Under the pieces are notes generated by a model. That model had not been told where the DNA came from. It worked only from the letters and a program-made list of their open reading frames with translations, and ran no database searches. DNA of 46,538 nucleotides, counting the filler, from Jimgerdemannia flammicorona (taxonomy: Eukaryota), in the NCBI GenBank assembly GCA_003990765.1. It is 2 parts of 2 records of this genome, joined end to end, with 100 filler letters (N's around TTAATTAATTAA, not from the genome) between each part and the next. Parts side by side here need not be neighbours in the genome. Positions count along the whole stretch, not along the records: positions 23,323 to 46,538 come from RBNJ01001137.1; 1 more part is not named here. One strand, written 5' to 3'. Positions 11,831 through 46,538 of the stretch are shown here, one piece after another (the stretch's first letter is position 1; each line of letters starts with the position of its first letter). The translations under genes were made by a program, and so were the position numbers.

Positions 11831-12121
11831 CATATAGCTTGCTCCAGTCACCATTATATAGCTTTTGGAGAGGCCCAGGCCAGGCCTCCTCCTCTCTAAA
11901 TGCTCAGAACCAGATGAACTTTAGCTCACCATTTACTCAAAAATAGTCAGAATTTGATAAAACTTATAATAACTTGAAACTTGACCCTTGCTGCACCTGA
12001 TATATTTGAGAATGTAAAGTAAAAACTTGAAAACATATTGCTTTTCACATAAGAATTCTTGTGTGGCTTAGCTTGGTCAGTTTGGTTTGAGCAAAAGAAG
12101 TTCCTAAGTACCACCAGTCTC

Positions 12122-14384: not shown

Positions 14385-15711
14385 TAGAGGCAGTAGATTA
14401 GGAGAAGTGGCTGTGGAAGACTTTGGAAGGGGTGGCAGCAGAGGAGCTGGGGGGAGAGGACTTCTGGGTTATGGAGGAAAGGCATTGGGAGGATATCCTT
14501 CATGGGGAGGAGGTGCTGAGGAAGGTTAGGAATGAGATCCTGGCAGTACTATTGGAATCAGTTGAATATCAGGTTGATAATCAGAGAGAGGAGGAACTCC
14601 AGGAGATTGTGAATGATAGGGCAGCTTACTTGTGGAGATCAAGGAAGAGATTGGAGAAGTAGAGAGTGGTATGCACAGACTATAGTGCAGAGATGGAAGT
14701 GGTGGATAGAGTGGAATGTTAGGAAATCTTGGAGACATTGGATGCTCAGGCTGTAGCAGAAGGGGACTTGGAAGTGGAGCAACAATTGGATATAGTTGGG
14801 GATGAGATGAGCATGGAATACTAGGCTAGGTCATCACATTCAAACATTATTCAATATAAACAGTACAACTAGGATATTTTCTTTGAATGTGAATGGGTTG
14901 AGGGGAGTAGCTTGGTGGTGGCTCATATTTGGTTAGCTTAAGGGACTGGATGCAGATCTCTTTCTACTGCAGGATGTATGTTATGAGACAGAAGTGGACT
15001 TTCAAGATTGGACTAGGGAGTGGGGGGGAGTAGTAGTGTGGTTTGGATGAGTGGGTATCTTAGTGTAGAAGGGGATGGGGGACATTGGTAATATAGGACA
15101 TTAGGGGAGTTGGTTGGTGTATGGAGTATGGAAGAGACCTGGTTGGGGCCTGCCGACAGTTGGATCATGTTATTGCCGAGCAGAGAGGGGGGAGTAAATG
15201 GACTGGATCAGGAATTTGCAAGAGGCTGGTATCATGGTTGAGGCTGAAATTGAATGCCTGGGGGGGGACTTCAATATGGTTAGGGATAATGGAGTGGACC
15301 AGACTGATGGTGGGAGAGAGATGAAGGGCTGAAGTTGGGGATTGGATGGTTGGATGGAGATGGAGCAGTTGAGTTCTCTGGTGGACTTGGGGAGACTGTT
15401 CTGGGAGGATCGTCAAATTTATACTCACTGAGTGGCTGGTCTGGGTTCTAGATACTGACAGCAGAATGCTTTGGAGTGGATGTCTGGGCCATGCTGGAGG
15501 TTGTGTGGTGTCCATGGTCAGATCACTAGGGTCTGCTTGGGGGGGGGAGGTTCAGGAGATGTGGGGATGGGCCTGGACACTGGTGGCTCAATTCCTCTTT
15601 GTTGGAGAATAGTGAATTATAGGCTGGATGAGAGATAGAGGTTGTTGGAAAAATTGGTCAATGGCAGGAGCAGGGACTGACAATAGGAGATCATTAGAAA
15701 AGGCTGAAATT

Positions 15712-15799
15712 GAGTGCTCAGAGATATTGGAGGGAAGCAGGGAAAGGGAGGAGTGCTCAGGGACATTGGAGGGAAGCAGGGAAAGGGAGGAGTGCTCAG
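15712..15799 (+). repeat. 39-bp tandem duplication inside LINE ORF2
   Basis: GAGTGCTCAG(A/G)GA(T/C)ATTGGAGGGAAGCAGGGAAAGGGAG twice, plus a partial third start. Confidence 0.85.
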
Positions 15800-17159
15800 T
15801 GATAGCAGAGAGTGCACTGGGCCTTGCAGTGGCTGGAAATGCTCCTGGAGAGATGGGCAGATGTACTAGAAGATAGAGAGGTGGCAGACTGGTGCATTGA
15901 AAGGATTCAGAAGGAAGTCAGAGAACTTAAGGAGGTGCTACAAGTGGAGGAAGAGGCTAAATTGAAGGAGATGGTGGCAAGGTTGAGGTGGCAAGGGTTA
16001 GAGGAAGGGGAGTGACCCACTAGGTTTTTATTGCAGATGTTATAAGTGCAGAGAACTAAGCAGCAATGAGAGGGTATCTTGGATGAGGATGGGGAGATGG
16101 TGGTGGAGACTCCAGCGATTCTGGGATTGCTAAGGTCTCACTGGGAGGACCTATGGAGTGAGGAAGAAGGGGATGGAGATGTCTTAGATATTGAACAGCA
16201 GTTAGAGGATTGGCATCCAAACCCAGCAGTGGGTCTAGGGGCTCTAGGGGACCAAGTGAGAAGGGAGGAGGTGTGTAAGGTCCTGGCTTCGACAAGCAAG
16301 GGGATGGTATTAGGAGAGAATGAGCTTTCTTGGGATTTTTGGAAAAAGATGGCCAGGGTGGAGGCAGTGTTGGAGGAGTTGACAGGGATGTGCAATGAGG
16401 TTTTTCAGTCTGGAACTTGGATTGGGGGCCAGCATCTAGGGCTGGTCTCTTTGCTCTTTAAGGATAAGAGGAGAAGGGAAGATTGGAAGAACTGGTGTCC
16501 AATCATGCTCCTTGATATGGACCACAAGCTGGTTATGAAGGTCTTGGTGACTAGGCTGCAGGGGATTGCTCAGCAGGTGCTGGGAGTTGAGCAGAGAGGG
16601 TTTGTGGGTGGTTGGTTGATCTGAGATAGGACAGCCTAGGTCCATGGAGTGATTAAAGGGGTGTGGGCTACTAGGGTTGATGGCTGACTGATGTTTCTGG
16701 ATCAGGAGAAGGCTTATGATAGGGTGCAGAGAATCTGGCTAAAAGGGGTCCTGAAGTAGCATCATAAATTCAAGGTCCCATATATAAGGAGTACAATGTA
16801 TACTGATATATGATTTTGAGTTGATGGTATTAAATATACAAAACTGTACCTATGATGTCTGGTACCAAATTTTGGTACAACCAAAAAAATGTAAGTCACA
16901 TCTAAGGAGTACAACACATACTAATGTACAATTTTAGGTTGATAATATCAAATGTATAAAACCATACCTTTGATACAACCAACAAATCATATACAACCCT
17001 TTTTTGAAAAGTACAATTTGGAAATCTGAGGATGGCTGACATATAAACTTTGGTAGTATCTGAAGACACTAATGTATAACTGATAAAATCTTTTGGATCA
17101 CTGTACAGAACTACATTTTTTTTTATTTGAGTACTTGCATACAATAGTCGATCTATATT

Positions 17160-19193
17160 TTTATATCATACTAGAATGTATCCCCATCCCCAAATTGGTC
17201 CACGTCATACAGCTTGACTTGTTTGAGGTCTGGGTCACTGTGTACTTTTTTGGGTCATTTGGTATTACTGGGACACTCCACCTCTGCCTCCATCTTCTTC
17301 TGCAAACCCTTTAAATCCAATTTATGTAGCTGGACATACTTGCAGATTTTTCTGAGATACTTGTAATACCATTCAATATAGTCTTCACTTTTAAATGGGT
17401 GCATGATATCAGCTATCAGATAATATACCTATATAACAAAGACAGTAAGAAAGGGAGGCATCTCACAAGTACTCAAAAAATATAGAATAGCATACATAAT
17501 AACATACCAATATAGTTATGAATGTAAGCATGTAATCATTTATACATATCAGTATGATCGACATCAGAATATCTGGCTCTTCTCTCAAAAAAAAGGATCC
17601 ATATAGCATTCCAGATAATTGGTCCTGTAAATGGACTGGATAGTTTCCCATGATGCTGAGGAAGGCCAGTGCTGCTGTCAATCATAGGTATGCACTTCTT
17701 GTCATACAAGATTGGCAGTGGTTCAAAGATAAATTTGTCATTCACCTCCAGACCCTTTAATTTGGTCTTCCAGATCTCCTTCATATCCTTATTGCTCACT
17801 TTTACAATTTTCGTGATTTTATGGATAGTGACGATATGATGGAATTCCAGTTGAAGAATGTCCTTCATGATTGTTTTTACTTGGAATGCCATTTGATGGA
17901 ACTGCATCATATATGAGAATGATATAAGAAATACACGAAGATGATATAAGTATCCGAGATGCACAATATACAAAATCAGGTATGATGAACTGAATTTGGG
18001 TTTTCATTGCCTATCTTCATGACTAAAACTTTGGATTTTTGAAGTTTCTAAGGGCAACCCAGGAACTTGAGCTGGGAATTCAAAAATTCGCCATGTTCAA
18101 TATCTCCAAAACTGGAACCTCGGATCACATAAGCAATTATCGATAGTCTGGCTTATTCGAATTTGTGCAGCAAGATGTTGAACCTCGAGCATAATGTCTC
18201 CTGAGATAAATTCATTTTATCACCTTCATCATCATTGCTATCTTGATATATACTATATGAAATTCAGGTATTATTAGTCAAAGTTCAAGAGTATCCCAAT
18301 ACATAAAAGGCAAACTCCACTATTTGCAAGCATACCTGGGCTTAGTCAGGGCATAGGCACTAGGCTTCAGGAGTGACTGCACAGGCTGAAGCTGGGTATA
18401 CTGCAGGGTGAGAAGAGCATGCTGCATGGACTGCTGCAGGGCGAAGAGGGTATGCTGCATAGATTGCACAGACTGCACAGGTTGCACAGGCTGCTGCAGG
18501 GCGAAGCGGGCATGCTGCATGGGTTGCACGGACTGCTGTGGGGTGAAGAGGGCATGCTGCCAGGTTGCATGAGTTGCTGCAGAGTGAAGAGGGCATGCTG
18601 CATGGGTTGCACAGGCTGCATGGGCTGTAGTTGCGGCTGCAGAGTAGGCTATACAATGGGCTGTAACTGTGGGGCAGGCTGTATAGACTGCTGTATGGGC
18701 TGCTGCATGGGCTGCTGCATGGGCTGCTGCACAGACTGCTGTATAGACTGCTGCATAGACTACATGGGCTGGGCCTGCTGCATGGGCTGCATGAGCTGGG
18801 TCTGCTATATGGGCTGGGTCTGCTGTATAGGCTACTGCATGGGCTGGGTCTACTACATTGGCTGGGTCTGCTGCATGGACTGGGTCTGCTATATGGGCTG
18901 GGTCTGCTGTATAGGCTACTGCATGGGCTGGGTCTACTACATTGGCTGGGTCTGCTGCATGGACTGGGTCTGCTGCATGGACTGCTGCATGGGCTGGGTC
19001 TGCTGCTGCTGGGCATACTGAGTAGGCTACATGAGGGCATACTGTATGGCAGGAGTATAAGACTGCAAATAATTACCAAGTATGATTCATTATACTGAGG
19101 TTGCTCATTTGTTTCATTACTTTCATCTGATTGTGATTGATGTGCTCTCTTTCTTTGAAGTATTTGTTTGGTAGTGGCACACTTTTTGGCCAT
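17160..19193 (-). pseudogene. Spliced transposon-borne gene copy 1 (Gln-rich N-terminus; DUF6532-like C-terminal domain)
   Basis: ATG 19193, Q-rich repeat, then exons ...DKFIFEP...GKLSSPFTGPIIWNAIWILFF...LTFITIL | intron 17507-17429 (GTATGT..ATAG) | VYYLIADIMHPFKSEDYIEWYYKYLRKI. Premature stops. Confidence 0.6.
18360..19015 (-). repeat. Coding minisatellite for poly-Gln repeats (QQTQPM)n and (QPMQHALFALQQ)n
   Basis: 12/18-bp units CAGCAGACCCAGCCCATG on the minus strand. Many CAG codons are converted to TAG. Confidence 0.85.
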
Positions 19194-23222: not shown

Positions 23223-23322
23223 NNNNNNNNNNNNNNNNNNNNNNNNNNNNNNNNNNNNNNNNNNNNTTAATTAATTAANNNNNNNNNNNNNNNNNNNNNN
23301 NNNNNNNNNNNNNNNNNNNNNN
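23223..23322. other. Assembly gap with artificial six-frame stop linker
   Basis: N run, TTAATTAATTAA (23267-23278), N run. Confidence 0.95.
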
Positions 23323-23551: not shown

Positions 23552-25428
23552 GACATTGTCCGCATCGATCTTGCCGTCAAGCATAAGAAGTTCGGCAGCA
23601 CCCCGAACATTAAGGCATCGTTCGACCACGCCAAGGCCGGCAATGGGCGCATACACTTCCTCGGTCTTGTCTCCGACGGCGGTGTACACTCGCACATTGC
23701 GCACCTGTTCCATCTTCTCGAGTCGGCCAAGGAGGCTGGCGTGCCACACGCGTACGTGCATTTCTTCGGTGACGGACGTGACACGTCCCCCAAGTCGTCG
23801 ACCAAGTACCTGCGCGAACTGATCGACGAGATCAAGAAGATCGGGTACGGCGAACTGGCCACAATCGTCGGAAGGTATTACGCCATGGATAGGGACAAGC
23901 GGTGGGAGAGGGTTGGGAAGGCCGTTGATGGGTTGGTTAGGGGTGAGGGCGAGAAGAGCCACGATGCGATTAAGGTAAGGAGATTTGTCATTTGTGGATG
24001 GTTATGGTGGACGTCATCCCCGTACCACACATGCCTTACATACTGCCACTTCAAATTTGCTATATCTCATCAGATCGTCGAGGAGCGCTATGAGGCCGGT
24101 GAGACCGACGAGTTCCTGAAACCGATTATCTTGTCCGAGGAGGGCAGGATTAAGGGTGCGTGCTTATTTCACGCTACGTTTCATGGGTGAAATGGTTGTG
24201 TAGACGGCACTGCGCTGCGGCAAAATCTTATCGCGTACCCCGAACATGCAGCATACTCATTCGACCAAGTTCCTAACCATGCACAATGTTCACCCCCAAC
24301 AGACGGCGACACCCTCTTCTTCTTCAACTTCCGCTCCGACCGCATGCGCGAGATTGCCTCAGCCTTCGGCATCAAACCCCCTCCGTTCGAGACCGAGATT
24401 CCCAAGGATCTGGTACATGAAATGACCCCAACTTCCTATCCTTTACCACTCCCATTTTCTCTCCTTCCGTGACTCACCCTTCTCTCCACCCTCTCTAGCA
24501 CATCACCTCGATGACGCAGTACAAGTCGGACTTCCCGTTCCCCGTAGCGTTCCCACCACAAACAATGGACAACGTACTCGCGGAGTGGCTGGCCAAGAAC
24601 GAGGTCCCGCAAGTGCACGTGGCCGAGACGGAAAAGTACGCGCACGTCACCTTCTTCTTCAACGGCGGCACCGAGGCACAGTTCCCCCTTGAGGAAAGAT
24701 GCATGATTGCCAGCCCGAAGGTTGCCACCTACGACCTCCAACCCGCCATGAGCGCGCAGGAGGTTGCCGATAAAGTCGCCGAGGAGATCGCCAGTGGGAA
24801 GTACCCATTCGTCATGTGCAACTTCGCGCCCCCGGATATGGTGAGTTTTGAGATGGGTTTTGATGGGGTTTGAGGGTGAAGGTGATGTTGCGTTAGGTTC
24901 CTATGGCAAGCGTGATGGATCGCTACAAAATTGTCGAACGGTTTTATTCCCAACTTGGCTGGTACGCGAACGGTTTATTTATGCATTGCACCGTGTCTCT
25001 ATCAGGTTGGTCACACCGGTGTGTACGAGGCCGCCATCAAGGGCGTCGAAGCCACTGGTAAGTCGCATTTCACACTTCCCACGCCTTTCATACAACTTTA
25101 TTGCACCGAATTCCCCTTCCTAATCCCAGAAATTTTCCTACCACCAGACGCTGCGATTGGCACAATCTCTGAGGCGTGCAAATCGCACGACTACGTGCTC
25201 TTCGTGACAGCGGATCACGGCAACGCTGAGAAAATGTTATCGGACGACTTCTCAACCCCACATACTGCCCACACCACCGCCCCCGTGCCCTTCGTCATGG
25301 CCTCCCATAGCCACAAGTTCGTCGACGCCAAGGTCGGCGCCCTGTGCGATGTCGCCCCCACCGTCCTCAGGGTCATGGGCATCGATGTGCCCGAGGAGAT
25401 GACAGGCGTCAGCTTGTTGCAGGAGTAG
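23552..25428 (+). CDS. gpmI: 2,3-bisphosphoglycerate-independent phosphoglycerate mutase (iPGM), 5'-partial
   Basis: Exons 23552-23974, 24074-24155, 24303-24412, 24499-24840, 25006-25057, 25148-25428, all GT-AG and frame-consistent. Motifs GLVSDGGVHSH, DGRDT, GRYYAMDRDKRW, FNFRSDRMR, AETEKYAHVTFFFNGG, DMVGHTG, TADHGNAE, HTAHT. The N-terminal exon(s) with the catalytic Ser are not in this contig. Confidence 0.97.
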
Positions 25429-25945: not shown

Positions 25946-26457
25946 TTAGAGGTTTGACTTGATCAGGTCCTGGAGCTTGGCAACGTTGGCACCGACGACC
26001 TCGCCGAGCCTTTGGCCATTCCTGAAGGCCAGGAAGGTCGGCATGGCGCGGATGTTCATCGCCTCGGAGACGTCCTGTGCGTGCAAAAAGGTGTGAGGCG
26101 GATTAGTTAGCGTCCCGAACGCGTAGTATGTGAAGCAGTGCATAAAAGGCCATAGACGTACTGGAATTTCGTCGACGTCAATCTTGACGAAGATAACATT
26201 GGAGTAGTCCTTTTCATTGGAGAAGCCCTCAAACTTGGGGGAAATGACCTGGCAGGGGCCACACCAAGTGGCGAAGAAGTCAACGACAACCTTTGCGAGG
26301 CGAGAGAGGTTAGGGAGCCGGTGAGCGATGTTATGACACGTTTTCAAAGCTGACGAGGAGGACGACTGGAAAGAAAAGGAGAGGACATGCATACCAGCTT
26401 GTCGCCGTTGATCAATTCGTTGAACGCATCAAGGTTGGCGGGGTGCTGGAGAGGCAT
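25946..26457 (-). CDS. TRX: Thioredoxin (106 aa, 3 exons)
   Basis: Exons 26457-26395, 26290-26162, 26074-25946 with GTATGC/AAG and GTACGT/CAG splice sites. VVVDFFATWCGPC active site and AMPTF cis-Pro motif. Confidence 0.97.
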
Positions 26458-27432: not shown

Positions 27433-27925
27433 TACTGCAGACAATGTCAATTTGAATTCAATTTGATTTATTTTCTGATATTGCTGCTATCCAATTTGAT
27501 TTTATTCTATATAAAAATATTTACCAACAATCAAATTCATGAACTAATTCACTAGTAATGTCTTTATTATCAATCAAACCTTCAAAAGTTAAATTATCTA
27601 CATTACTATCAAAATTATCCTCTGATTTTAAAATCTAAATCAATAATTAAAGAATTAGCTTTTGCTTCTTTTTATATAAAAAATTATATTTTATAACTAA
27701 ATCTTCTTTATTTTTATAAACTCTTTTTAGTACTCTAAATAGATTAAATTTATTCAGATAAGATTCAAATTAGATTTATTATATAATAGATTCAAATCAA
27801 CTAAATCAACTCAGATTTGCCTTTGATCCAATCTAATTAGATCAATCTGGATCAATCTGAATCAATTTGAATCTTTAATGATATTATTTCTTTTTTGTAT
27901 ATATTTGAATATATTCAATATATTA

Positions 27926-28388
27926 TATAATAGTTCTAGTTTCTTTAAGAGAAAGCAGCTTAATCTGGAAGTTCTAGTTAGTCTAAAGTAGCTTCAAGAG
28001 ATACTTAAAAGTTCAAGTGTTCTTGAAGAATTTCTGGAAGAAAATATTCTGAGCTTTATTCAGGTAGAGAATAAGGATATTTATATATGATCTAAAAGAA
28101 AGATCCAGAAGGATCTTGAAAAGAAAGAGAAATATCAAGAAATAAGTTCTCAGCAAAGCTGACTAATACTGTTCTATAATGTTCTGAAAGGTTCTATAAC
28201 TAGCTAAGACAAGATACTTAGTACCAAAGAAAGATAAGAATATTCTAGTAGTGTCTAGACATCAAGAGAAGATTTCTAAGTAAGTAGAAAGTGGCAGAAT
28301 ATAGTAGAATATTTAAGAAATAACAAGAAAAGACTAACTAAAAAACATGAAAATATACTAAGACTAAATATGACTATAAATTATTATA
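27926..28388 (-). repeat. 3' LTR (463 bp)
   Basis: Direct repeat of 33613-34076 and 44761-45224. Polypurine tract adjacent at 28389-28402 on the minus strand. Confidence 0.93.
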
Positions 28389-28739
28389 TCTCTCTTTTCT
28401 TAAGAACTAATATCCTCATTGAGTTCTTAGGTAATACAAGACTAGATATACTTAACCAAAATTTCTCAAACTTATATTGGCACATTAGTAGAGATTGACC
28501 ATCCTTATATAGAGCAGAGGGTCTATTATCAGATTAATCAACTAGGAGGGGTTCGAACCCAGCTAGTAGCTTTATTTTGATAGACTTCTTATTCATTAAA
28601 TATTCTGCTGGTTTTAGGATTCCAAAGTAAACTTCAAATGTATAAGATACTGATTATTACTATAGATTATTGACAATTCAAGAAAGTTACTATAGAGATT
28701 GGGTAATGTGTTTTATCTTGAAGTTTTGAACTAGATCTT

Positions 28740-28867
28740 AAGAGTTCTTGAGGTTGACCAGTAGTTTCCAGGTAGTATCATATTCAAAGTAATCCATCCA
28801 CTTAACTAGATATTCAGAATAGTGATAGTAGATTTATTTGTCAAGGATTTTCTCAGCTTTGTACTCA
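28740..28867 (-). pseudogene. Integrase C-terminal chromodomain
   Basis: EYKAEKILDK*IYYHYSEYLVKWMDYFEYDTTWKLLVNLKNS. Confidence 0.88.
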
Positions 28868-29097
28868 ATATAGTCTTCAATAATCACAGGGGCAGATGGC
28901 TTAGAAATTTGACCAGAGTAGAGCAGTAACTAGTTTTAGATCTTGAGGTATGATATATGAAAGACTAGGTATACTCTTATGATTTCAGATAGCTTGAGGT
29001 AGTAGGAGAATATAGAGACTTATTTAGTGATCTTGAAAGGTCCAATATACTTGAGTTGAAACTTATTCAAAGGATGGTTGACTTGAGATTATATTTT

Positions 29098-29124
29098 GAA
29101 TATTTATAAAAAAAAAAAAAAAAA
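29098..29124 (+). mobile_element. Extremely 5'-truncated retroposed insert (about 10 nt plus A17)
   Basis: GAATATTTAT(A)17 flanked by the 13-bp direct repeat GAGATTATATTTT (29085-29097, 29125-29137). Removing it restores integrase LSTKNLKI*SQVNHP. Confidence 0.85.
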
Positions 29125-32100
29125 GAGATTATATTTTAAGATTCTTAGTAGATAGTAGAACTTGATCTTCAATAGTGTAAGTGATATTATGATATTTCTT
29201 ATTAGTATACTTGACTTGATGCTATTGAGTCTTTTGAAGATTCATAGTAATAATCTTAAGTAGTTTGTCTATTTTGTCTATAAGACTCTTAGTAGTAGAG
29301 ACTTATATTTAACTACTTTTTTTGAAAGAGAATAGACTTACAAGAGTCTTGGAATCTTGACCATAAAGTAACCAAAAAGAGAAAAGACTAATAGATGATT
29401 GGATGGTATTGTTGTATATGAACTCTATATAAGTCAGATAGTGGTCTCAATTATCTTACTTATAAGAAATATAGTTTCTAAGTATTTGTTCTAGAGTTCT
29501 GTTCATGTACTTGGTTTGTCTATTAGTTTGTAGGTAAAAGATAGTAAATATAGCCAATTGGGTTCCTAGAGTCTTGAAGAGAGTTTGCTAGAAGTAACTG
29601 GTAAACTTGGGGTTATAATTACTAATAATTACTCATAGTAAGTCATAGTGATAGAAGATGAACTTGAAGAAGATTTTTACAATCTTGGGTATAGTAGTAT
29701 TGATGGTAGTTGGTTCAGTAACCATAGTCTTAGTCAGACAGTCAATAAATATAATGATAGCATCAGTATCAGATTGAGTTTGTAGTAGTTGAATTATGAA
29801 GTCCATGATAACTTACTTAAATTTCTTAGAAGGAATTGGTAGTGGTTATAGTAAACTAGTTGTCACTTAGTTGGTAGACTTGTTGTATTGGCATAGATTA
29901 TAGCTGGCAATATAGTTCTTGATTTTCTTGACCATACTTGGCCAATAATAGTAGCATTAGATGTTCTTGACAGTCTTCTCAATTTCTAGATAACTAGCAA
30001 GAGGAGAGTCATGGTGTTCTTGTAAAACCTTATAATATAGGTTCATGTTTTCAGATAGATAGACTTAGTCTTGATGATAGATCAGATTATTCTTAATAGC
30101 ATATATATCCTTGAGCTCATTTAAGAAAACTCTAGTAGTGACTGTGTCTTCTTTATAAGCTTGCCTAATTTGGTCTAGGAATTCTGATACCAAGGTGACT
30201 TACATGATTGTAGTGAGGTCAGAGTATCTTGATAAGATATCTAGTACTATAAGTATCTTACTAGGCTTGTAGATAATCATTAGATTGAAGGTTTGAAGTT
30301 TGAGGCTTTACTTGGCTTATAGATATGACAGAGTAGGTTAGATGTTGATATACTTAAGGAATTGATGGTCAGTAATGACATTAAACTCAATATCTTCTAG
30401 ATAGTATCATCAGTGGTCTAGTATATGTATTATTGCCAGTAATTCCTTCTTATAGATAACTAGCTTTTGTTTGGCTGAAGCTAACTTGTGGGACTTGAAA
30501 GCAATGGGATGATATTCTTTATTATTATCTTATAACAGAACTACTCTAATGGTAAAATTTGATACATTAGTAATAACTATGAATTTTAGACCTTAATCTA
30601 CATTATATAGAACTAGAGCATAGGTCAGATGATTCTTGAGTTCTTGAAAAGCTTATTGACAGAAGAGATCTCAGGTATAGGGTACATAGTAGTCTGAGTA
30701 TAGAGTCTTTCTTATGAGATTAGTCAGTGACTCAGCAATGCTAGAGAAGTTTCTGACAAAGTAGCAGTAGTAGCTAGCTAGACCAAAGAAGGATCAGAGT
30801 TCTATAAGGTTTGATAGAATAGACTATTCTTAAATTGCCACTATCTTGTATAGATCTACTTGAATTCCTTATATAGAGATAATGTAGCTAAGATATTTGA
30901 CTTATTTTTTGAAGAATTTGCACTTCTTGAGCTTAGTATAAAGCTTGTGTTTTCACAGGATCTCCAGAACTATTCAAATATATTTGAGGTATTCTTTTTT
31001 AGTTATACTAAAGATCAGAATATTGTCAAGATATATCAATAGGAAAATAAATAGTTAATTCTTGAATATCTTATTCATCAGAGTCTGGAATATGGCAGAT
31101 ATATTGGTGAGATCAAATACTAAGACCAAGAATTCATAGAGTCTAAAGAGGGTCATGAATGTAATATTGAGAATATCTTCTGACTTAATTTGAATTTGGT
31201 GCTATCTTAATATGAGGTCCAACTTAGTGAAGTACTTGGTATTCTTAAGAGTATTAAAGATTTAATCAATCAAGAATAGTAGATAGTAGTTCTTGATAGT
31301 AAGCTTGTTGAGTGTATGATAGTCTATGTATATTTGTAGAGTACTATTCTTCTTTTTGATGAATAAGACTAGTGAGCCATAAGGATATTTGCTTGGCTGG
31401 ATAGCTCCTTATATAAGTAGTTCTTCTAGTTTCTTCTTGACTGCTTCAATTTTAAGTAGTAATATATAATATATATATTTCTTAAGTAGTATAGCTCCTG
31501 AAGTCAGTTCAATTTCATGATCAACTTCTCATATAGGTGGTAGGCCAGATAGCTTATCTAGAAAGACATTTTTGAATTCTTCTAGTAGTAACTTGATACT
31601 TTCATTGACTGATAGTCTCTTGTCTTGTTTTTTGGAGCAGACCATTATAACAAAGGTATATATTATCTTCTTAAGTGCTCTCTTATACTGTATAGCTGAC
31701 AGTATTACAATCTGGGTTTTGCTCATAGTCTTGTCTATCTTGATAGTGATGTTGGCTCTATCTTGAAGTAAGATGACTTCATTCTTACACCAATCAATAT
31801 CTGAGTTGTGTTTTGTAAGCCAGGGTTTTCCTAGGATCAGATCATGATCTCTTAGTAGTATAACCTCAAAGTCTACTCATTCTCAATATTTCTGAATCTT
31901 GATGGATAGTTTGACAGCAATTGACTTGATGGGGTGCAGAGTACTATCTGTAGTAACTATACTATTGTTCTTGAGTATAGGCTTGGTAAGAATCTTGAGG
32001 CTTTCAATGAGGTTCTGATTGATGAAGTTCTCTGCAGCTCTGCTGTCTATAAGTACTTGAACTTCTTTTCCTTTGACTAGATCTTTGAAAATGAGTATAG

Positions 32101-32134
32101 CTTGAACTTGAATTTTACTAAGACTTGCTGCTTA

Positions 32135-32545
32135 ATCAGTACTACCAAAATCTTTTTGATCTTATTTAGTTTCAAGAAGTTCTTGAACTTCTGTAATTTT
32201 GAGTTAACTGGCTTTTTTTAAGATCATTTGTATGACTCAGTCTCCTTTCTTGACTGTGTAGTCTTGATCCTTCTGATTGATAAGTAGGACTTGAACTTAT
32301 CCTTGAAAGTCTAGATCAATAATACTAGTATCTGTATCTAAATAATGTTTAATACTAAGTTCTAATCATGGTGCAATTCTGGCATAATGATCTTCAGGAT
32401 ATTGAACTGCAATTCTAGTAGGTACTAGAGTTCAGTCCTTGGTTAGAATGGTGACTTATTTGACAGAGTGTAGGTCAAGACCAATAGCTCCTTCTGTTTG
32501 ATATTGAGAGATCTGGGCCTTCAGATGAAGCTTTTTGATCTTGAG
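32135..32545 (-). pseudogene. dut: Trimeric dUTPase domain within gag-pol
   Basis: LKIKKLH..AQI..QTEGAIGLDL (motif I), YARIAP*LEL (II), SIIDLDFQG*V (III), KKGD*VIQMI (IV), ETK*DQKDFGST (V). Most deviations from consensus are C>T/G>A changes. Confidence 0.92.
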
Positions 32546-33599
32546 CTCAGATTGACTAGTAGTGGAGTTGACAGGTATATCTTTGGATAATATGGTAACT
32601 GGTCTTGAGAGTTTACTAGTCTTCTTAAGACATTTGGTTGCAATGTATCCTATTTAATAATAGAAGAAATAAGCTCTAGATTTCTTCAGGCAGTCCTTTT
32701 CTTTAGGGGTAAGCTTGGTGTTCTTTTTTTTCATAGTGTTTAAATCTATTAATACTGGGCCAACTGTCCTTGATTAGTTTCTGTAACAGTTCTCAAAGTA
32801 GTTTTTTTTATAGTATTCTAGTTCAAAGTAGTTACCAAAGATAATGATATCAAACCTATCAGTAATTCTCATAGCTTCATCAAGGTTTTTGGACTCTTTT
32901 AGCTCAATCTTGACTCACGTGTTTCTCTTCAGACCTTGGACATAGTAGTCTATCTTTTTGTCCTCAGATATTGCTAGTAGCTCAAGTAGAATTGATAAGA
33001 ATTATGTATTGTAGCTTTGTACAGACTTGAATTGCTTGATGTTCACTAACTTATCTCTGGCTAGCTTGGTAGTATTAGCAGACTTGAACTACCTATAAAG
33101 GGCTCTTTTGAAAGCTTTCTAGTTTCTGATTTATATATATAAGTATATAGATATAGTCATAATATGATTACATCACCAGATAGCTACATTTTCTTAAAGA
33201 AGTGTAGTGGCAAATTAGACTTGTATATCTTCTTTCATTCTTGTAAGCTTAAAGTATTGGTCTAACTAGAAGGTCCATATATCTGTAGATAGTTCTCCTC
33301 AATGACTATTAAAGATATCTGACTTGAGTAGTTTGAAACTAACTAATACTATAGTAGAATGTGATATACTTGTAGTTCTTGTTTTCTGCTGTTCTAGTTG
33401 TACTTGAAGTTCTTGAATTTGGTAGGCTATAGTAGTAATTATTTCCTCTATACTAACTTATAGTCCTCCTACTTCTTCTGTAATAGAGAGATCTGACTGA
33501 TAGACTGACTCTTCACAGCTCATTTAGATTTGTGTGACTGGTTGTGACTGGTTTCTGAATTTATGTAAGGTTTCTTAATAAGGCAAGGTGTAATGACAT

Positions 33600-33612
33600 T
33601 GCTGCTACCAAG
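33600..33612 (-). promoter_or_regulatory. Primer binding site (initiator tRNA-Met type)
   Basis: CT-TGGTAGCAGCA immediately inside the 5' LTR. Confidence 0.75.
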
Positions 33613-34076
33613 TATAATGATTCTAGTTTCTTTAAGAGGAAGTGGCTTAATCTAGAAGTTCTGGTTGGCCTAAAGTAGCTCAAAGAGATACTTAAAGATT
33701 CAAGTGTTCTTGAAGAATTTCTGGGAGAAAATATTCCAAGCTTTATTTAAGTAGAGAATAAGGATATTTATATATGATCTAAAAGAAATATCCAGAAGGA
33801 TCTTGGAAAGAAAAAGAAATGCCAAGAAATAGCTTCTTAACAAAGCTGACTAATACTGTTCTACAATGTTCTGAAAGATTCTATAACTAGCTAAGACAAG
33901 ATACTTGGTGCTAAAGAAAGATAAGAATATTCTAGTAGTGTCTGAGCACTAAGAGAAGGTTTCTAAGCAAGTAGAAGATAGCAGAACATAGTAGAATATT
34001 TAAAAAATAACAAGAAAAGACTAACTAAAAGATGCAAAAATATACTAAGACTAAATATAATAGTAAAATTGTTGCA
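33613..34076 (-). repeat. 5' LTR (464 bp)
   Basis: Direct repeat of 27926-28388, adjacent to the PBS. Confidence 0.93.
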
Positions 34077-34139
34077 TACTATCTTTATATTTACTATCTT
34101 TATTATAATACTATAACCCCTCCTCTCCTTAGAGAACTA

Positions 34140-34420: not shown

Positions 34421-37400
34421 ATGACTACTAAGATCTACAACTATATCTATGCTGATATTTGAAATACCATTATCAATCAAGCCACACCTTTTCTGCCCCT
34501 CATAAATATCCATAGTCTAGCATCTCTCTACTTTATAGAAGCTCAATGGAATACTCTGAACATACTCAGCAAAGCTCACTGAATTAGACAAATCTCAAGC
34601 TACTACCAGATTGGCCATCTCCTAAAAGATATAGTTGAATACTATCATGATATAAACATTACCCAGATGTCTCAATATCAGAAACTCATCACCTATAAAT
34701 ATCAAGAACTCTTTTATAAATACAGTATCTTTATTCCCCACCTCTGAGTTACTACTGCTAAAATGGTTACCACTCTATCCTATGACCAAATCAATAATAT
34801 GATACAAAAACTCAACTACAAGTATATCAAGTATATTTAGACTATAGACAGAACCTTTCTGCACCCCAATGATCATATCTTACAAATGTTCCAAATTAGA
34901 TATATTATAAAGGATATCTATAATATAATCTAGTTTGATAATAATGAAGTAGAAGATAATGATCTCTCTGATACTGATATAACTTTTAGCCAAAGATCTC
35001 TGCCAGCATAAACACTTTTCTCCAGTATCACTTAGATTATACAACTTTCTAGTAATACTTATTAATACCATTTTTGAAGAAAAGTTACTAGTTTCATAAC
35101 AATCAATAAGTATTCCAAGGTATATACTGGGCAGAGTGGCTCTGATGTGTTCAACTAGCAGTATGTAGGGAGGGGCCCTAGCTTGGGGGGAAGTATGAGG
35201 GGCCTGCTGGCAGGAGGATGTAGTAAGAGAGGGGGTGGTATTGGAGACCAGAGAACAGAAAGGGTAAGCTTTGCAGAAAAGATGAAGGGGGATCAGCAGA
35301 GAGCTGGGCTAGAGAGTTGGCTGAGAGAGAAAAAGGCAATAGTGAAGACTACAGAGCAGAGACTTCAAGGGAGAGCCCCTCTAGAGAACCAGAGTAGTGG
35401 AGCTAATGGTATAGTGGCTGAGGAGGTGACTGCTGATGAGAGTGTGACAGGCAATCTGGAAAAAAAATCTAGATAGAACTACTGATAGTGGACTGAGTGA
35501 TGGGAAGGGCATGAGGCCTAGAGATCTGACTGATAGTATAGTGGGACTGGTAGTGGCACTATTATTCAAAAAGTCAATCTCAGAATTTGCAGTCATCCTA
35601 TACTTCAGAGGCTTGGCATTGATAGCAAAAATGGTTCTGAGGCTAATAGCAAAGTAGGTGGAAGACACAGTATCTGTTAAGTTCTTGAAGGGCCTGGAAG
35701 GAGTAGAGGTAGGCTTTGAGGAGACAGGGCCACTAGAGGAGACACTGAAGGCTGGGTTGATGGTTGGAGAGATATATATCTCAGTGGCATGGTGCTTGAG
35801 ATGGGACCCCAGAGTGATATAGCTCCTAATGAAGAGAGTGCCTATGGTGACTGTGGTGGAGATGAGGAGAAGAGTGGAGGAGGTTATGACTGAGTATGGG
35901 GAGGTGGTTGATATAGGGTTTAGGGTCTGAGAAGGGACTACCTTCTAGATAGGGGATGTTGACATTCAGATTAAATTGGCAGGAAGAGAGGCTATTGATA
36001 AGGCATGGGATTGGCTTTTGGTAATGATATAGAGAGCCTTTGTATACAAGGTAACAAGAGTAAAGAGGAGTGAAGAGGAGGATAAGGATCTGTTAGAGAT
36101 GCTAGAGGAGCTGAGTGGTGTAGTAGAGCAGAGGACAAAGGCTTGGAAGATGTATATGGAGTCAACACACCTGGAGATTGTTGATAAGAGGTGAGTCTAT
36201 ATTGACAAGGGGCTGTAGGAGAGGTCCCAAGATTGTAGGAGGTAGAGAGAGTTGCTAGTGAGTCTAGAGGTGAAGAAGACAAGGACTACTGATAGAAGTG
36301 AGGATGCTGGGAGAGCTTTGGCAAGTATCTGGGCTGAGAGACAAGGGGGAAATGTAGAGGTGGGTCTAGAGGAGGCCAGGAAGATACTGAGTGAGGATCT
36401 ATATAAGAATGGTACATTTGGAGTCTGGAAGCAGTCTCCTATACCAACCTCTCTTATCAGATAGAGACTGGCTGTAAGGGGCTGAGCAGTAGAGGATGTG
36501 CTCATATATGGGGCTCAGTGGGTACACTTTGGGATTCCTGAGGTGGCAAAAGGTGGACAAGTAGTAGCAGTTGGCAAGGAGGAGTAGAATGAGGCTACAA
36601 GTGTAAGAGAGGACATCTCAATGCTGAGTGGTGGTCAACCTGCAACCTCTGGGGGGAAAGAAGTGGGGAATCTACTGTAGATATGTTGGATGATGAACAA
36701 TCTTATAGCTGAGGAACTGGAAGAAGTGGACATGAGAGTGATGAGTGATGAGCACTGAGTGAGGATCTTATATAATAATGGAGTGGTAGAGGTACTAAGG
36801 GCAGAAATACTGGCAGTTTTCCTGGAGAAAGAAGGGTATAAGGTAGACAAGAAAAGAGAGGCTGAGCTGGCAGTTGTTACTGGTGAGTAGGCTATCTACT
36901 GCTGAGAGAAGCATCATAGTTTGTAGCTCTAGTAGAAGGCCTGCTTAGAGTATCATGAGAATTTTAGAGAAAAGAAGAATGGGGAAATGGCTGAGCTACT
37001 GAAAGGACTAGAAACTAAGAGGGCTAAAGAGAAGACAGTGTCTGCTGAATAAAATCTGGACTTGGCAAGAGAGGTGAGGGATATGGAGCAGTAGAGGATA
37101 TATTTTCAATTCTATAATATTTCTTATGAATAATACAACTAACATTTTTTCACTTAATATGAATGGGTTATAGGATTTATATCAGCATTGGAACATTTTT
37201 GCTTAGCTGAAGGAACTAGAGGCAGATCTCTTTCTTTTGTGGGATATCAGATATAAGAATAATTTGAATAGACTAGAGTAGACTAAGGAATGGGGAGAAG
37301 AGGCCATATAGAATAGCAAGGTAGGAATTCTGGTCTGAAGAGGCAGAGGAGAGATATGAGAAGTGAGGAGTTGAGAGATAGACTGATTTGGAGAGTGAAT

Positions 37401-40400
37401 TCAGGCAGGTTGGGAGCCAGTTATAGTAGAGTCTTGCTACTGCCCTATTGTATGGATAAAGTATGTGGGCTGGGTGAAGGGCCTCCAGAAAAGTGGGGCT
37501 CTTATAGAGACTGGAGTGAATATACTTGGAGGAGACTTCAATATAGTCCAGAATATGTTAGTAGATAGAACTGATAGAGGGAGGGGGGCTGAGGGTCAGA
37601 GTAGTGGTTTGGAAGCATGGAAGAAGGTAGAAAGACTGAGTGTACTAGTAGGTACTGGCAGGGGATTTTGGGGCAATAGGAGGATCTATATACACTGGAT
37701 CAGGAGTCTGGAGACAAGGATTAACTGGGTCTTAACTGCAGACTGCTGGGGATTTGATATCTGGAATCACTGGAGATTGAGTGGTATTCATGGTCAGATT
37801 ATTGGGGGTTATTAGGACAAGAATATTTTGGAAGAAGTGGGGATAGGCCTGGACATTGGTACCTAAATTCCTCTTTATTAGACAATAAGGAACTGTGAGA
37901 TAAGTAGGCTGTAGACATTTAGTAGAGGGTAGAGGATTGGATACAGAAGGGGGTCTCTATAGGTATCAGATAGATATGGCTGAAGAAGGCTACTAGGGTC
38001 TACTGGGGAGAGGCTGGCAAGATGGCTGGCAGACAGAAGAGGTGACAGGTGGCCTGAACTTCTGTTAGACTAGCTTGGCTTCTGGAGGATAGAGCTGGGC
38101 TATTAGCCCTAGAGGGGGGGGGAGACTGGTATTTGTTATAGGCATAGAAGGAGATTGAGGAGTTATAATTAATAGTGAGAGAGGAGAAGGAGGTGAGGGT
38201 ACAGAGTCTGGCAGTATGACTGTATTGGTAGGGACTAGAGAAAAGAGAGAGGCCCTCTAAATTCCTCACAAGGGCCCTTCAGGTAAGGAGAGTTCAGCAG
38301 AGATAGGAGAGGGCATTGAATCCTGATAGACATTTAGTGCATAGCATACATGACATTCTTATATTGTTAAAGGGAAAGTGGAGTGATCTGTGGAGTGAAG
38401 AGGAGGGGGAGGGGGCTGATGAGACTGCTATTGACCATATCTTGGAGGATTAGTATCCACTATCAGTAGGAGGAATAGACAGTCTGGTATTGCCAGTATA
38501 GGAGGAGGGGATTCATCAGGTTCTTACTGCAACTTTGCTGGGCATGGCACTAGGGGAGGATAGCTTGTCCTGGGACTTTTGAAAGAAGATAGTGGGAATC
38601 CCCAGTATACTAAAAGAATTGATAGTGATGTATAACTTGGTGCTAGGGTCAGAAAGATGGGTGGGTGATCAGGACCTGAGGCTGGTGGCTCTGCTTTATA
38701 AGGACAAAGGCAGGAGAGAGGACTGGAGAAACTGGTAGCTGATCATGCTGCTGGATATAGACAGAAAGCTAGTTACTAAGTTAGTGATAATGAGATTGCA
38801 GAAGGTGGTCCAGCAGATGTTGGGGAAGGAGCAGTAGGGCTTCATGGGTGGTCAGCTCATTAGAGATAGTACAGCTTGAGTATATAGTATTATTGAGGGA
38901 GCATGGGCCTGTAGACTGGATGGGCACCTGGTTTTTCTGGATCAAGAGAAGGCATACAATCATGTCTGGTGGGTCTGGCTGGCAAAAGTCCTGGATAGAA
39001 TTGGTGTCTCTCAGCAGTTCTGAGTGGCAATGATCAGCCTACTAGAAGGGAGTTAAGTGGCACTCATATATAATGGGTACTGAGGGGGGGCTTTTTCTCT
39101 GAGTAGGGGGGTCCCTCAAAGGGACCCACTGTTCCCTATTTTGTATGTACTCTCATTGGAGCTATTGATGGACAGGATTCAGCAGAAGATAGTAGGGCTC
39201 TTAGTATTAGACATTGGATAGAAGGTTGAAGTCTTTGCAAATGATATGGTGGTTGGCCTGAGATCAATCACCAATATAGTGAAACTCAAGACAATGGTAG
39301 AGTAGTATGAGGTGCATTCTGGGACTAAACTTAACTAGCATAAGTGTGAAATAATGGTGTTAGGTAATGGCCTGATGGAAAGGGATGTCATTGGAACAAT
39401 TGTCTCTACTGAGGAGACAGTGAGATACTTGGATATTTATTTATCAGTATATAGATCTGTTCTTCCCAAACTCTGGTGGGAGCAATAGGTGGTTATCTGG
39501 AGAGAGGCTCTGTAGAGCTGAGGAGGCTGCCACTTATCTCTGACAGATGTGTCTCTATCTTGAATACTTACTGGCTGCTGAAGTTATGGTATCTGGTATA
39601 TTATCTGGACTTCCTGGCCTGGATGATAAAGAGACTACTGAAACTAGCCAAGGGATAGATCTGGGTAGAGAAAAGGAGTCATATTTAGCTGGGAAATTTT
39701 ATCCTTACCAGTAACTAGAGGGAGACTTGGGCTAGTTGACTTCCTGAAGAGGTTATACTATCTGAGAGTATGGTGGCTGAAGAGAGCTGTTGAGCTGAGG
39801 GGTAGCAGCTGGGTTCTTCTATTGAAGAAGGTCTGAGAGATAAGATTCTCACCAAGAGGATCTATAGAAGATCTTCTGTTCTTAGTCAGACTTCAGAACA
39901 TTGGACATATACAATTTAAGGGCTTCTGGTGAAGTGTTGCTAAAGGGATATACTACATTAGCATTTATTAGTAGAGAGATGAGGGAGAAAGGCCTTGGGG
40001 CCCAGTGATATGGAGATGGGACTGTGTATTACTGGGGGGTATCCTCCTTAGTAACTTTGATATTAGTGATGGAGTTGAGTACCAGAGGGGGTTGGGGCAG
40101 GATCTGTGGCCCAGCAAATAGCAGTTAGTGAGTGTTGATAAGGAGTGGGACTGGAATGGGATCTGGAACTGGTGTGCTGAGGTTCAGCAGTGGCTGTTAC
40201 CAAGTATTAGATAGTCTGGTAGTGTATGTTGAGAAGGAATACCATGCTCAACTTTCACTCTAGCCACCAGGTGGAAGGGGGAACCTTTGACTATAAGGAG
40301 TACTATAATGTTAGATAGGAAGAGAGTTATATACAGACACCTGAACATTAGCTAGGAGAGTGTGAGGTACTCAGTGACTTCTGGATAGCAGTTGGGAAGA

Positions 40401-41491: not shown

Positions 41492-44400
41492 TGTGAGATG
41501 GTAATATGGTCCCAACCTATTACTATATGAATGAATAGAGAGATATTATTCAAGAACCTCTCTTTTTAGATAACTACTTCATCAGAGATGATGTCATCAA
41601 TGGTGATCTCATTAAAGACTACCTAGACAGTATCTAAATCTATAGATAGCTTAGCAGTTATTAGTATAGTTAGATTAGTCTTATATAATGTGACTATATA
41701 TTAACTCAGCAGTCAGATGATCTTTTGATATATCAGTTTATACTTGTATTATATGACTGCATTCTGACTCAACAAGATACTAAGTATTATATATAGTCCA
41801 GATAGCCTCTCATTAGTATAAATATCCTCTCTTCAGACCTCAGAAACTCAGACATGAATAGATCTGAACATACAAGAACTTCTGAACACTTTTCTGTAAT
41901 ATCTCTTCACATAACTACTCCTAGTATAGCTATATCATAAATAGTAAATAAATCTATTTAATAACTATAAATCACTTTTAAGTAAATCTGTACCTTGTTA
42001 GATCTCACTCTAACCACATCATGAAATTTTCTAATTAGGTATTATTTATAGCAATATACCAATTCAACTAAGCTAGTTTTAGTTTTTTGAACTTCCTGAA
42101 ATTCAGAAAATTTTAAACATCCAGAACTAGTCCAAAAAAGAACTTTGATTGAGACATCAATCTGATCTTAAATAGAGAATATACTCTATATAAAATTGAT
42201 CTTGATCTTAAGAAAACAGTCTTTCAGAATATCTAAACTTTGAGAAAATGCTTCTAGAACTACATGCATAACAGTACTTTAATAAATAACCCTCTTATAA
42301 CTTAGTAGCAGTAGTTTATAATCCAATTCTGCTTCAAGATACTTTTTTACCATACTATAAATCTCTATGAGAATTCCTATAAGTTAGTATAAAGCCCAAC
42401 CTCTAAACTAGAATTTATTCTAAACTATCTAATAATCTGGAGAGAATTGAATCTAATGTATAAGGACAATTTGATCTCTATATCTATAATAAGTGAGACA
42501 GACTTCATTTACAAAAAGAAGTACTCTTATTAAATCAGTAGATAGATGAAACTCTATATACTAAACTCCTTACTCTACACTCCATAAGTCAAGACAAAGA
42601 AGGTCTTATAGAAGTCTTCTTTACTCTTCTCAATAAGAGTTTCATTAGCTCTACAAATTCAAGTAATCTAGAACAACCAGCAGCCATCTTTCTAGCCTTA
42701 GTTCTCCACAAAGCCTAAGCCTCTGTAGTCAAGTAGCTCAACTCTACTGACTTTCACTATACTAGGACCAAGACTATCTTATACTACTACTTTCAGAATT
42801 ATAAGGCCTGCTATATTCTTAAAGAAGAAGCAAGAGAAACCCTTCATCAATAATCTGATTCTGAATTAGAAGCAGACCTAGCTATAGTTCTATCTAAAAC
42901 TAAAACTAATACTGAATCAGATCAAGCTTTTAAATTAAGCTTATCTGAAATCTAGTATACAACTGATACTATCTACTTTAATACTGAGTAAACTCAATTA
43001 CACAGGAACTAAAGCAAGGAGAAGGAGGAGTATCTCAGTGAATTTAATTTCAGATATACTACTAAAGAAGATGTATTTTTTTTTTTTTTTTAATAGACTC
43101 AATGTTCTACAGATTTTTATTGGAAGGAAACCTAGACTATATAGGCCAAAACCCTCCCCCACCACCAAGCACTACCCTCTCATTAATCTAGACTAGCTAT
43201 TGTCCAGCAGCTTGACTATGCCAGATGCAGTAGGGCCAATTTGGCCTATACCTCATTCTGTGCACCATGCTCTCCCTACTACTAGAGAAAACCCAGCCAT
43301 ATACTAATGACTGAAAGTACATGCCCAAGAACCCAATGTATATACAAGGCCATACCTAAGCCAAATAGAATAACCCCTGCCATCTCAAAGAGAATGATAG
43401 GTAAAGAAAAAATCCTCATCAAAGTACAATATACCTGGTTCTCTCAGTCAAGGTGAGCAAAGGACTTATATGTAAGGCCCCAATATCCCACTACTCAAGC
43501 CTGTGGGCCTTGATCACATTGCCATGTCAGCTCCCAGTTTCAGTTGAGTGCAGCCAAGATATCTGAAATGAGTAGCCTCGGGCCCCCCAACCCCCCCTGA
43601 TGACTAGGGCCAAATCTGTCAAATTACCAAAAGAAGCCAAGAGTGATACTTATCACCTAACCATACTGCACCAATCAAAAGGTCCCACTGAAGCAGTATC
43701 TACCTCAGCCCTAACAATTGCTCCCAGCCTGGTACCCTACTGGTTCACCATTATCACCCTTCCTCCTATCTGTAACAGCCATCTCTCCTCCCATCCTGAC
43801 AATACCTGAAAAGCAGTCACCTATGCCAGAACCACACTTGTCAAGAAGCTTGCCAAAGCCAGAGGGCCCCACTACAGGCACCGAGGACCTGCAGGTAATC
43901 TATACTGAGTACTTGACACCTAAGGTTGGCTGACTTCCTATATAGCCTGAGACATACTGAGACAGCACCTTGTTAGTGATAGCAAAAGAAAAAAGGTGCT
44001 GCACCAAAATGGATACACTCCAGATGTAGCCAAAGACACCAGAAATCATGAAAAAGTAGAGAAGACACCGATCTGACACTGATAAAGGGGCAACTCATCA
44101 TCATTGCCTCCCTCTCACTGCCCTACAATAGGTACAGCAAACTAACCCAAGGTAGAGGGGGTAATAATTATGGAAAGTAAACTTGGAAGGTTGCCTACCA
44201 AACCATTATGACTGATAAGGTAGTAGAGAAAGGGGTAAAGAAGATGTATTCCTCTCAGGACAAAATATACCTATAGGACAATAGATAGTTATCTATTAAG
44301 TCCTTATTCCAGACTTACAACAGTTACTCCAGCAACTTATACAGACTTAAAGAATACTATTATATTCTACATCAGTACCTTAAGTCATATCAATAATACT

Positions 44401-44760
44401 ACTATCAATAGTCTAATTACCTCCAGTAAACAATATGGTAAACCAACAGATTTTAGACCTCACAGCTCAGATAGCTATAATGGTAGCAACTATTACTACC
44501 TTAGCTGAACAGACCTGACTAATAAAAAGTCTGAGTCTACCTACCTTTAATGATACTATACAGGAAGTCCAAAGCTTCATTAGTATAGTTGATATTAATT
44601 TTGAAGTCAACCAATGGACCAATGAGTAAGTTGCTAACTGTCTTCTGATAAACAATCAAGACCATACTCTGAAACAACTCTTTGCTACTAATATGGCCTA
44701 TGTCTATTAAGTTATTATATTCTTTTAAGGATCTGCTGAAGAATAGTGGTGAACCCTTCC
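41492..44760 (+). mobile_element. Second LTR retrotransposon family: 5' LTR, PBS and gag relic, interrupted
   Basis: LTR ~41492 (TGTGAG) to 42299 (CCCTCTTATA), then a mutated PBS TAGTAGCAGTAG. Gag motif LPTFND..EVQSFI..VDINFEVNQW...F*GSAEE*W at ~44535-44750. The LTR is homologous to 45951-46538 (inverted). LTR start inferred from terminal symmetry. Confidence 0.72.
43078..44235 (-). mobile_element. 5'-truncated LINE (~1.16 kb)
   Basis: Poly-T at 43076-43091. 15-bp TSD TAAAGAAGATGTATT at 43063-43077 and 44236-44250. Confidence 0.85.
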
Positions 44761-45920
44761 TATAATGATTCTAGTTTCTTTAAGAGAAAGTAGCTTAATC
44801 TGGAAGTTTTAGTTGGCCTAAAGTAGCTTGAAGAGATACTTAAAGGTTTAAGTATTCTTGAAGGATTTCTGAGAGAAAATATTCTGAACTTTATTCAGAT
44901 AGAGAATAAGAATATTTATATATAATCTAAAAGAAAGATCCAGAAGGATCTTAGAAAGAAAGAGAAATACTAAGAAATAGGTTCTTGGCAAAGCTGACTA
45001 ATACTATTTTACAATGTTCTAAAAGGTTCTATAACTAGCTAAGACAAGATACTTGGTGCCAAGGAAAGATAAGAATGTTCTAATAGTATCTGGACACTGA
45101 GAGAAGATTTCTAAACAAGTAGAAGATAGCGGAATATAGTAGAATATTCAAGAAATGATAAGAAAAGACTAATTAAAAGATATGAAAATATACTAAGACT
45201 AAATATGATTGTGAAATTGTTACATCCCTCTCTCTTTAAGAACTAACATTCTCATTGAGTTCTTAGGTAACACAAGACTAGATATACTTAACCAAAATTT
45301 CTCAAACTTATATTAGTGCATTGGTGGAGATTGACTATCCTTATATAAGATAAAGAGCCTATTACCAGATTAACCAATTGAGAGAAGTTTGAACCCAGCT
45401 AGTAGCTTTATTTTGATAGACTTTTTATTCATTAAATATTCTGCTAGTTCTAGAGTCCCAAAGTAAACTTCTAATATATAAAGTACTGATTATTGCCATA
45501 GGTTATCAATAATTTAAGGAAGTCACTATAGAGATTGAGTAATATATTTTGCCTCAAAGTCTTGAGAGTTCTTGAGGTTGACCAGTGGTTCCCAGATAGC
45601 ATCATATTCAGAATAACCCATCCACTTGACTAGGTATTCAGGATAGCAGTAGCAGATTCATTTGTTAAGGATTTTCTCAGCTTCATACTTAATATAGTCT
45701 TCAATAATCACAGGAGCAGAAGGCTTAGGAATTTGACTAGAGTAGAGCAGTGACTGATTCCAGGTCTTAAGGTATGATATATGAAAGACTGGGTGTACTC
45801 TTATAACTTCAGGTAGCTTGAGGTGATAGGAGGATATAGATACTTGTTCAGTGATCTTAAAAGGTCCAATATACTTGGATTGGAACTTATTCGAAGGGCA
45901 GTTGACTTGAGATATATCTT
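44761..45920 (-). mobile_element. Second copy of the chromovirus: 3' LTR (44761-45224), PPT, chromodomain and integrase tail
   Basis: Colinear with 27926-29097. Chromodomain YEAEKILNK*...EYLVKWMGYSEYDAIWEPLVNL and the IGPF motif. Confidence 0.93.
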
Positions 45921-45950: not shown

Positions 45951-46538
45951 TGTAAGAGGGTTACTTTTTAGGGTGACCATTATGTAGTTCTGGAAAGGTT
46001 TTCTGGATATTCTGGATGTTCTGGAAGACCGTTTTCTTATGGTCAAGATCAATTTTGTATGGAGTACATCTTTTACGCTTATTGATTTCAAGATTGGGTT
46101 GACATCTCAACCAAAGTCCTTTTTCGGACTAGTTCTGGATGTTCAGGATTTTCCGTATTTCAGGAAGTTTAAGAAACTAAGACCAGTTTAGTTGAATTGG
46201 CGTATCGCTGCAGACAATACCCAATTAGGAAATTTCGTGATGGGGTTAAGAGTGGGACCTAACAGGGAGCAGATTTACTTAAGAGTGGTTTGTGAGTTAT
46301 GGAAATAGGTTTATTTGCTATTCATGATATTGCTATACTAGGAGTATTTGTATGAAGGGATATTGTGGGGAAGTGCTCAGGAGTTGTGTTCGGATTGTTC
46401 AAGTCTGAGATTCTGAGGTCTGGGGGAGGGGGTATTTATACTAGTGAGGGGCTATCTGGACTATGCTAGATATGGATGTAGCACTAAGTGCCTTGCTGAG
46501 TTGGAATGCAGTCACGTAGTATAAGTGTGATCTGACAT
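45951..46538 (-). mobile_element. LTR of the second family, runs off the right edge
   Basis: Begins TGTAAGAGGG. The reverse complement aligns with ~41730-42299. Retains more CpG than that copy. Confidence 0.8.

Follow-up and report, generated by a model that had tools for sequence, protein, structure and literature searches.

Among the Gypsy elements described from Postia placenta, a dUTPase stands at the amino terminus of Pol in PosPlaTy3-3, at the C terminus of Pol in PosPlaTy3-4 and between protease (PR) and reverse transcriptase (RT) in PosPlaTy3-5, according to the element descriptions in PMC2864245; that paper leaves the role of Gypsy dUTPases open. The dUTPases of fungal chromoviruses have already been compared with those of betaretroviruses, and their likeness is remarked on in the relevant part of PMC2774666. 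A dUTPase occurs in three of the four bdelloid LTR lineages, as far as the excerpts of PMC2864245, PMC5408684, PMC6431247 and PMC11011659 go, which provides a precedent for host-wide prevalence; the prior art also takes in excerpts of PMC11105155 and PMC3248453. Among the papers listed by our literature searches, none dealt with Gypsy elements of Endogonales that carry a dUTPase. The Phanerochaete elements and Tmt1 reportedly carry dUTPases as well, as relayed by papers that cite them.

Here we analysed a stretch of 46,538 nucleotides (the window) from Jimgerdemannia flammicorona, in which an N-run spacer around TTAATTAATTAA (23223-23322) joins contigs C1136 and C1137, two halves that need not be neighbours. 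The window contains a complete LTR element on the minus strand, running from 34076 to 27926 and flanked by a 5-bp target-site duplication (27921-27925 at the 3′ side and 34077-34081 at the 5′ side) whose copies differ by one transition. Alignment of the 464-bp LTRs, placed at 33613-34076 (5′, with TG...CA ends, some mutated) and 27926-28388 (3′), yielded 408 matches, 52 transitions and 4 transversions. A polypurine tract was recognized by sequence at 28389-28402, and a primer-binding site (PBS) at 33600-33610 can pair with the 3′ end of a tRNA-Met whose T-loop is of initiator type; the PBS is found in the window copy and in the related family B described below, and the genome has two tRNA-Met(CAT) genes with the complementary end. 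Tf1-type chromoviruses are self-priming and have no tRNA PBS. Assignment to this self-primed class was rejected because the PBS fits the 3′ ends of host tRNA-Met. Elsewhere in the window lie decayed LINE-like elements (13182-16621 and 35400-39000) whose GC skew is strong and which are 65-72% alike in patches, a tract of degenerate 12-18-bp tandem repeats with several frames open (18363-19095) and an inverted pair of about 590 bp that is 75% identical (41730-42297 and 45953-46538).

Translation of the minus strand from 33580 to approximately 29140, with X at stops, gave one frame with Pfam matches in the order Ty3_capsid, dUTPase, RVP_2, RVT_1, RT_RNaseH and Integrase_H2C2. The Gag capsid (Ty3_capsid/Retrotrans_gag, 32804-33325, with stops) is followed by a nucleocapsid (NC) CCHC knuckle (32630-32671), a trimeric-type dUTPase of 138 codons (32135-32548) in the frame common to knuckle and protease, the aspartic protease (31769-32098), RT (Pfam RVT_1, 30878-31483), RNase H (RH; RT_RNaseH, 30227-30661) and an integrase (IN) with H2C2 finger and core (Integrase_H2C2, 29399-30040), all on the minus strand. 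The original prediction, made from the sequence of the window, had placed an in-frame dUTPase between a mutated Gag knuckle and a protease with a DSG-to-DSR change; this was borne out together with its coordinates, three of the four knuckle ligands being Tyr in the window copy and the protease Asp codon lying at 32047. An SH3_Tf2-1 (GPY/F) module and a chromodomain follow on the same strand at 28717-29067 (PF24626, E 8e-8; PF00385, E 4e-7) but in another frame. The shift arises where 40 bp of poly-T have been inserted and 13 bp directly duplicated (29085-29137, strand not assigned) ahead of the chromodomain; the insertion is missing from the family-B copy L080, all domains of which share one frame, and the integrase-chromodomain distance is 533 nt in the window copy versus 493 nt in L080. 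The element leaves no room for an env gene and shows the hallmarks of chromoviruses, namely LTRs, a target-site duplication, PBS, polypurine tract, PR-RT-RH-IN order and a chromodomain after the GPY/F module. The Pfam chromodomain and the Endogonales host support the predicted fungal, chromodomain-bearing Gypsy identity.

The window element is a dead, heavily C-to-T mutated copy of this lineage and belongs to what we term family A. Its CpG observed/expected ratio is 0.00-0.03 and that of nearby genes is normal, including a cofactor-independent phosphoglycerate mutase gene (23552-25425) and a thioredoxin-like ORF with a WCGPC motif (25949-26428). The 33 family-A copies compared show 18 transitions for every transversion, with contexts ranked CpG, CpA, CpC, CpT, a ranking partly confounded by mutation on the opposite strand. 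The transition bias is clear from these alignments, although we do not accept RIP as the established cause of the decay.

A DNA search of the genome identified 39 other full-span copies (85-87%) and one partial copy (40 scored of 1,049 candidates), so that the predicted arrangement recurs beyond the window. In 24 of 32 family-A copies, no frameshifting indel interrupts the path from knuckle to protease. The remaining eight are broken at scattered sites, one of them between knuckle and dUTPase, and three carry a 1-nt deletion just upstream of the knuckle, within 10 nt of one another. The four knuckle ligands are canonical in 15, 16, 21 and 17 of 33 family-A copies, respectively. A PF00692 search of the genome returned 8,265 candidates, of which 150 were scored; the 30 loci examined comprised 28 of family B, one of a distant family C and one host-type copy. 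Family B, a younger sister of family A, retains a natural 822-aa open frame with capsid, an intact CCHC knuckle matching zf-CCHC, dUTPase, protease and RT, and family C runs in a single frame from gag through the chromodomain. A programmed gag-pro frameshift was rejected, given the frame shared in the 24 family-A copies and the open frame of family B. A single gag-dut-pro-pol-chromo ORF, as originally proposed, is thus supported for the lineage by L080 and family C, but does not survive in the window copy, where the poly-T insertion breaks it. Two further structures were observed: at L002 (G000:C1469) a second block of capsid, knuckle and partial dUTPase precedes a family-A copy in tandem, and the window itself holds a second family-A fragment with chromodomain and 3′ LTR (44761-45920, 85% identical), adjoined by a family-C capsid fragment on the plus strand (44525-44761).

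The window dUTPase matches Pfam over amino acids 355-481 (E 3.3e-22; 4.7e-24 for the domain alone) and scores 79-85 bits against a PF00692 cut-off of 22, a match obtained with X at stops and without the reverted sequence that the prediction had envisaged. The domain had been called complete. That holds for its length, and all five motifs can be located, but seven stops interrupt it, of which three fall at the Arg codons in motifs II, IV and V. No stop-free dUTPase domain was found among 33 family-A copies; the motif III Asp is present in 31 of those 33 and all five motif patterns occur without a stop in 8 of 34 family-B copies, counts biased upward because the copies were chosen as the best matches to the window or to PF00692. 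Motif I reads GAIGLDL where xAGYDL is usual, and the catalytic Asp and motifs II-V are canonical in less mutated copies. The best solved-structure matches are trimeric dUTPases (E 1e-33 to 1e-34); a single-sequence AlphaFold model of the family-B NC-dUT-PR stretch reached a pLDDT of 32. Judged by sequence, the lineage's domain is a trimeric-type dUTPase (PF00692) with five motifs and the Asp in motif III. Comparing 32 family-A with 35 family-B copies, we obtained a ratio of second-position to fourfold-site transversions of 0.25 (0.11-0.52) for the dUTPase; the same ratio was 0.32 for capsid, 0.16 for protease and 0.12 for RT, for which fewer copies passed the frame filter. The transversions thus show that the dUTPase evolved under purifying selection during the active life of the lineage.

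Among 121 outside proteins, dUTPase precedes protease in 10 and follows it in 49; a further 144, from the best 150 representatives, gave 10 and 11, the queries behind this second set having favoured the dUTPase-first order. The decayed window protein, used as query in a word-index search, returned one match. Two relatives from outside this genome, P0125 and P0129, each show the dUTPase-first order within a single chain that spans capsid through integrase. The order, initially put forward as new, thus recurs in public polyproteins and, as the description of PosPlaTy3-3 in PMC2864245 indicates, is already on record for fungal Gypsy elements; its novelty largely fails. In the RT-RH tree of the genome's families and outside polyproteins, families A, B, C and E (E from the survey below) group with P0129 in one clade apart from families D and F, and the lineage lies on the side holding all chromodomain-bearing rows, separated from D and F with 100/100 support; the RT-only tree leaves deep nodes open. 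In dUTPase trees, the first of which was built after removing 72 of 225 candidate rows as redundant, families A and B join the P0129 group on long branches and outside the cellular clade. Support at these deep nodes is weak, at 84/94 for the RT-RH clade and SH-aLRT 92, or 87/81 with one extra row, for the dUTPase grouping. AU tests did not reject a single origin for these families (p 0.71, 80 rows), nor a Mucoromycota host-gene donor (p 0.36 and, with 80 rows, 0.094). A recent capture from the host gene was rejected. These trees indicate that the capture is not private to family A, being shared with at least one sister family and with outside polyproteins, and that one old dUTPase capture in this lineage is likely.

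Taken together, these data make it highly probable that the lineage, single-ORF chromoviruses of an Endogonales fungus that are primed by tRNA-Met, descends from an ancestor that had acquired a trimeric dUTPase, placed after the Gag knuckle and before the protease, and that the enzyme was packaged, released and used to limit uracil in cDNA. The anatomy, the single frame, the conservation across copies and the purifying selection on the dUTPase are direct results; the subsequent steps are modelled on the retroviral dUTPase role as set out in parts of PMC4531489 and PMC2864245. Active elements would make one polyprotein without a frameshift, so that dUTPase and capsid would be synthesized in equal amounts and the enzyme would enter the particle within that polyprotein. 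The element's protease would then free the enzyme, by itself or with NC still attached, and the freed dUTPase may trimerize and hydrolyse dUTP near the reverse transcriptase, which would limit uracil in cDNA and reduce the destruction of cDNA by host uracil excision.

In a refinement of this scheme, rather than a replacement, NC and dUTPase would stay stably fused in the mature protein, as they do in MMTV and M-PMV, and the enzyme would be tethered to the RNA or cDNA being copied, a true convergence with betaretroviruses. Beyond the betaretroviral precedent, a short, conserved knuckle-dUTPase linker (about 25 codons in families A and B, about 14 in P0129) and the basic dUTPase of family B and P0129 (pI 9.0-9.4, versus 5.7 for the host enzyme) speak for such a fusion, but the dUTPases of the PR-dUT-RT families D1 and D2, which lie far from NC, are equally basic (pI 9.3-10.1), whereas that of the NC-adjacent family C is acidic (pI 5.4-6.2). 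Moreover, the annotated proteins of the outside relatives P0155 and P0025 begin just before the dUTPase, so NC adjacency may not be required. We therefore regard a stable fusion as possible but doubtful. That the domain was kept for a non-enzymatic role, for example to trimerize the protease precursor or as a spacer, appears improbable: motif I deviates, the motifs of family C deviate further and BIV has a conserved, inactive dUTPase-related peptide, but that peptide is truncated to about 74 residues according to the portion of PMC4531489 concerned, and the domain studied here is full length, with the canonical Asp and motifs II-V noted above.

The host's own dUTPase gene, L081 (G000:C33350), contains three introns, which are lacking from L031 (G000:C6287), a copy 97-99% identical to L081 with changes in motif II; dUTPase mRNA is therefore retro-copied in this genome. 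The nearest named match of L031 is a Jimgerdemannia flammicorona protein (96%), followed by Mucoromycota proteins of up to 78%. Although such retrocopying occurs, there is practically no chance that the dUTPase in the element is a one-off host retrocopy or nested fragment in one or a few dead copies, because the domain sits at the identical place in all 30 loci from the window search, counting that of the window, and likewise in 28 loci of family B, is only 43% identical to the host enzyme and bears the signature of selection; the copy survey refutes a private insertion.

We surveyed dUTPase-bearing elements across the genome in 100 contigs sampled at regular intervals (508 kb, longer contigs represented by their first 10 kb). 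The sample contained 20 dUTPase domains, 6 in NC-dUT-PR chromoviruses (families B, C and E, none in A) and 14 in the non-chromovirus families D1, D2 and F. The order is PR-dUT-RT in D1 and D2, and F was seen only from the dUTPase onward, its upstream part lying beyond the sampled stretch; dUTPase thus occupies two positions in unrelated Gypsy lineages of one genome. Weighting gave an estimate of approximately 10,000 dUTPase domains genome-wide (bootstrap about 6,100-14,700), and of 21 sampled Gypsy RT matches, 16 have a dUTPase upstream, 4 lie at a stretch end and 1 is without. Non-chromovirus loci with a dUTPase just upstream of RT include L092, L093, L096, L097, L100, L101, L112 and L171, as well as L106 and L176. 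A 45-aa Cys/His module lies beside the dUTPase in families C, E, D1 and D2 and is missing from A and B; it stands downstream of the dUTPase in the chromovirus families C and E and upstream in D1 and D2 (L070:4322-4480, L157:1083-1223, L100:4100-4240 and L112:4097-4237), and searches of Pfam and PDB gave no match to it. More speculatively, and with a rather low probability in our estimation, dUTPase could be close to obligatory for Ty3/Gypsy elements in this host, the Cys/His cassette perhaps having moved between lineages, under a host-wide uracil pressure (high dUTP or a deamination-based defence) that chromoviruses would meet by a frameshift-free NC-dUTPase fusion convergent with that of betaretroviruses. 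The genome-wide prevalence is more striking than the domain order and is the part worth following; its thousands of copies, spread over several families and two positions and including stop-free natural domains, provide material for testing activity, NC fusion and selection.

The lineage extends the set of described systems by a further host phylum and an unambiguous single-ORF example. PosPlaTy3-3 resembles the window element in being a fungal Gypsy placed among chromodomain-containing elements with its dUTPase between Gag and protease (PMC2864245, as far as its element description goes), but comes from a basidiomycete rather than from Mucoromycota (Endogonales); in the window lineage, Gag and Pol share one frame and the knuckle lies directly upstream of the dUTPase. 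PosPlaTy3-4, PosPlaTy3-5, the Phanerochaete elements, Tuber Tmt1, the bdelloid Juno, Vesta and TelKA, the planarian giant elements and a PNMA-related metavirus likewise hold a captured trimeric dUTPase within a polyprotein, in the accounts excerpted from PMC2864245, PMC5408684, PMC6431247 and PMC11011659; for those other Gypsy elements, by contrast, the positions stated there are between PR and RT or at the Pol C terminus. The betaretroviral parallel drawn in the original prediction holds for linear order, as MMTV and M-PMV also run NC, dUTPase, protease, and fails for mode of expression: their NC-dUTPase is a trans-frame product of gag-pro ribosomal frameshifting that was shown to stay fused to NC (PMC4531489, in the section concerned), whereas the window lineage joins the same three domains without a frameshift, has no room for env and carries a chromodomain integrase.
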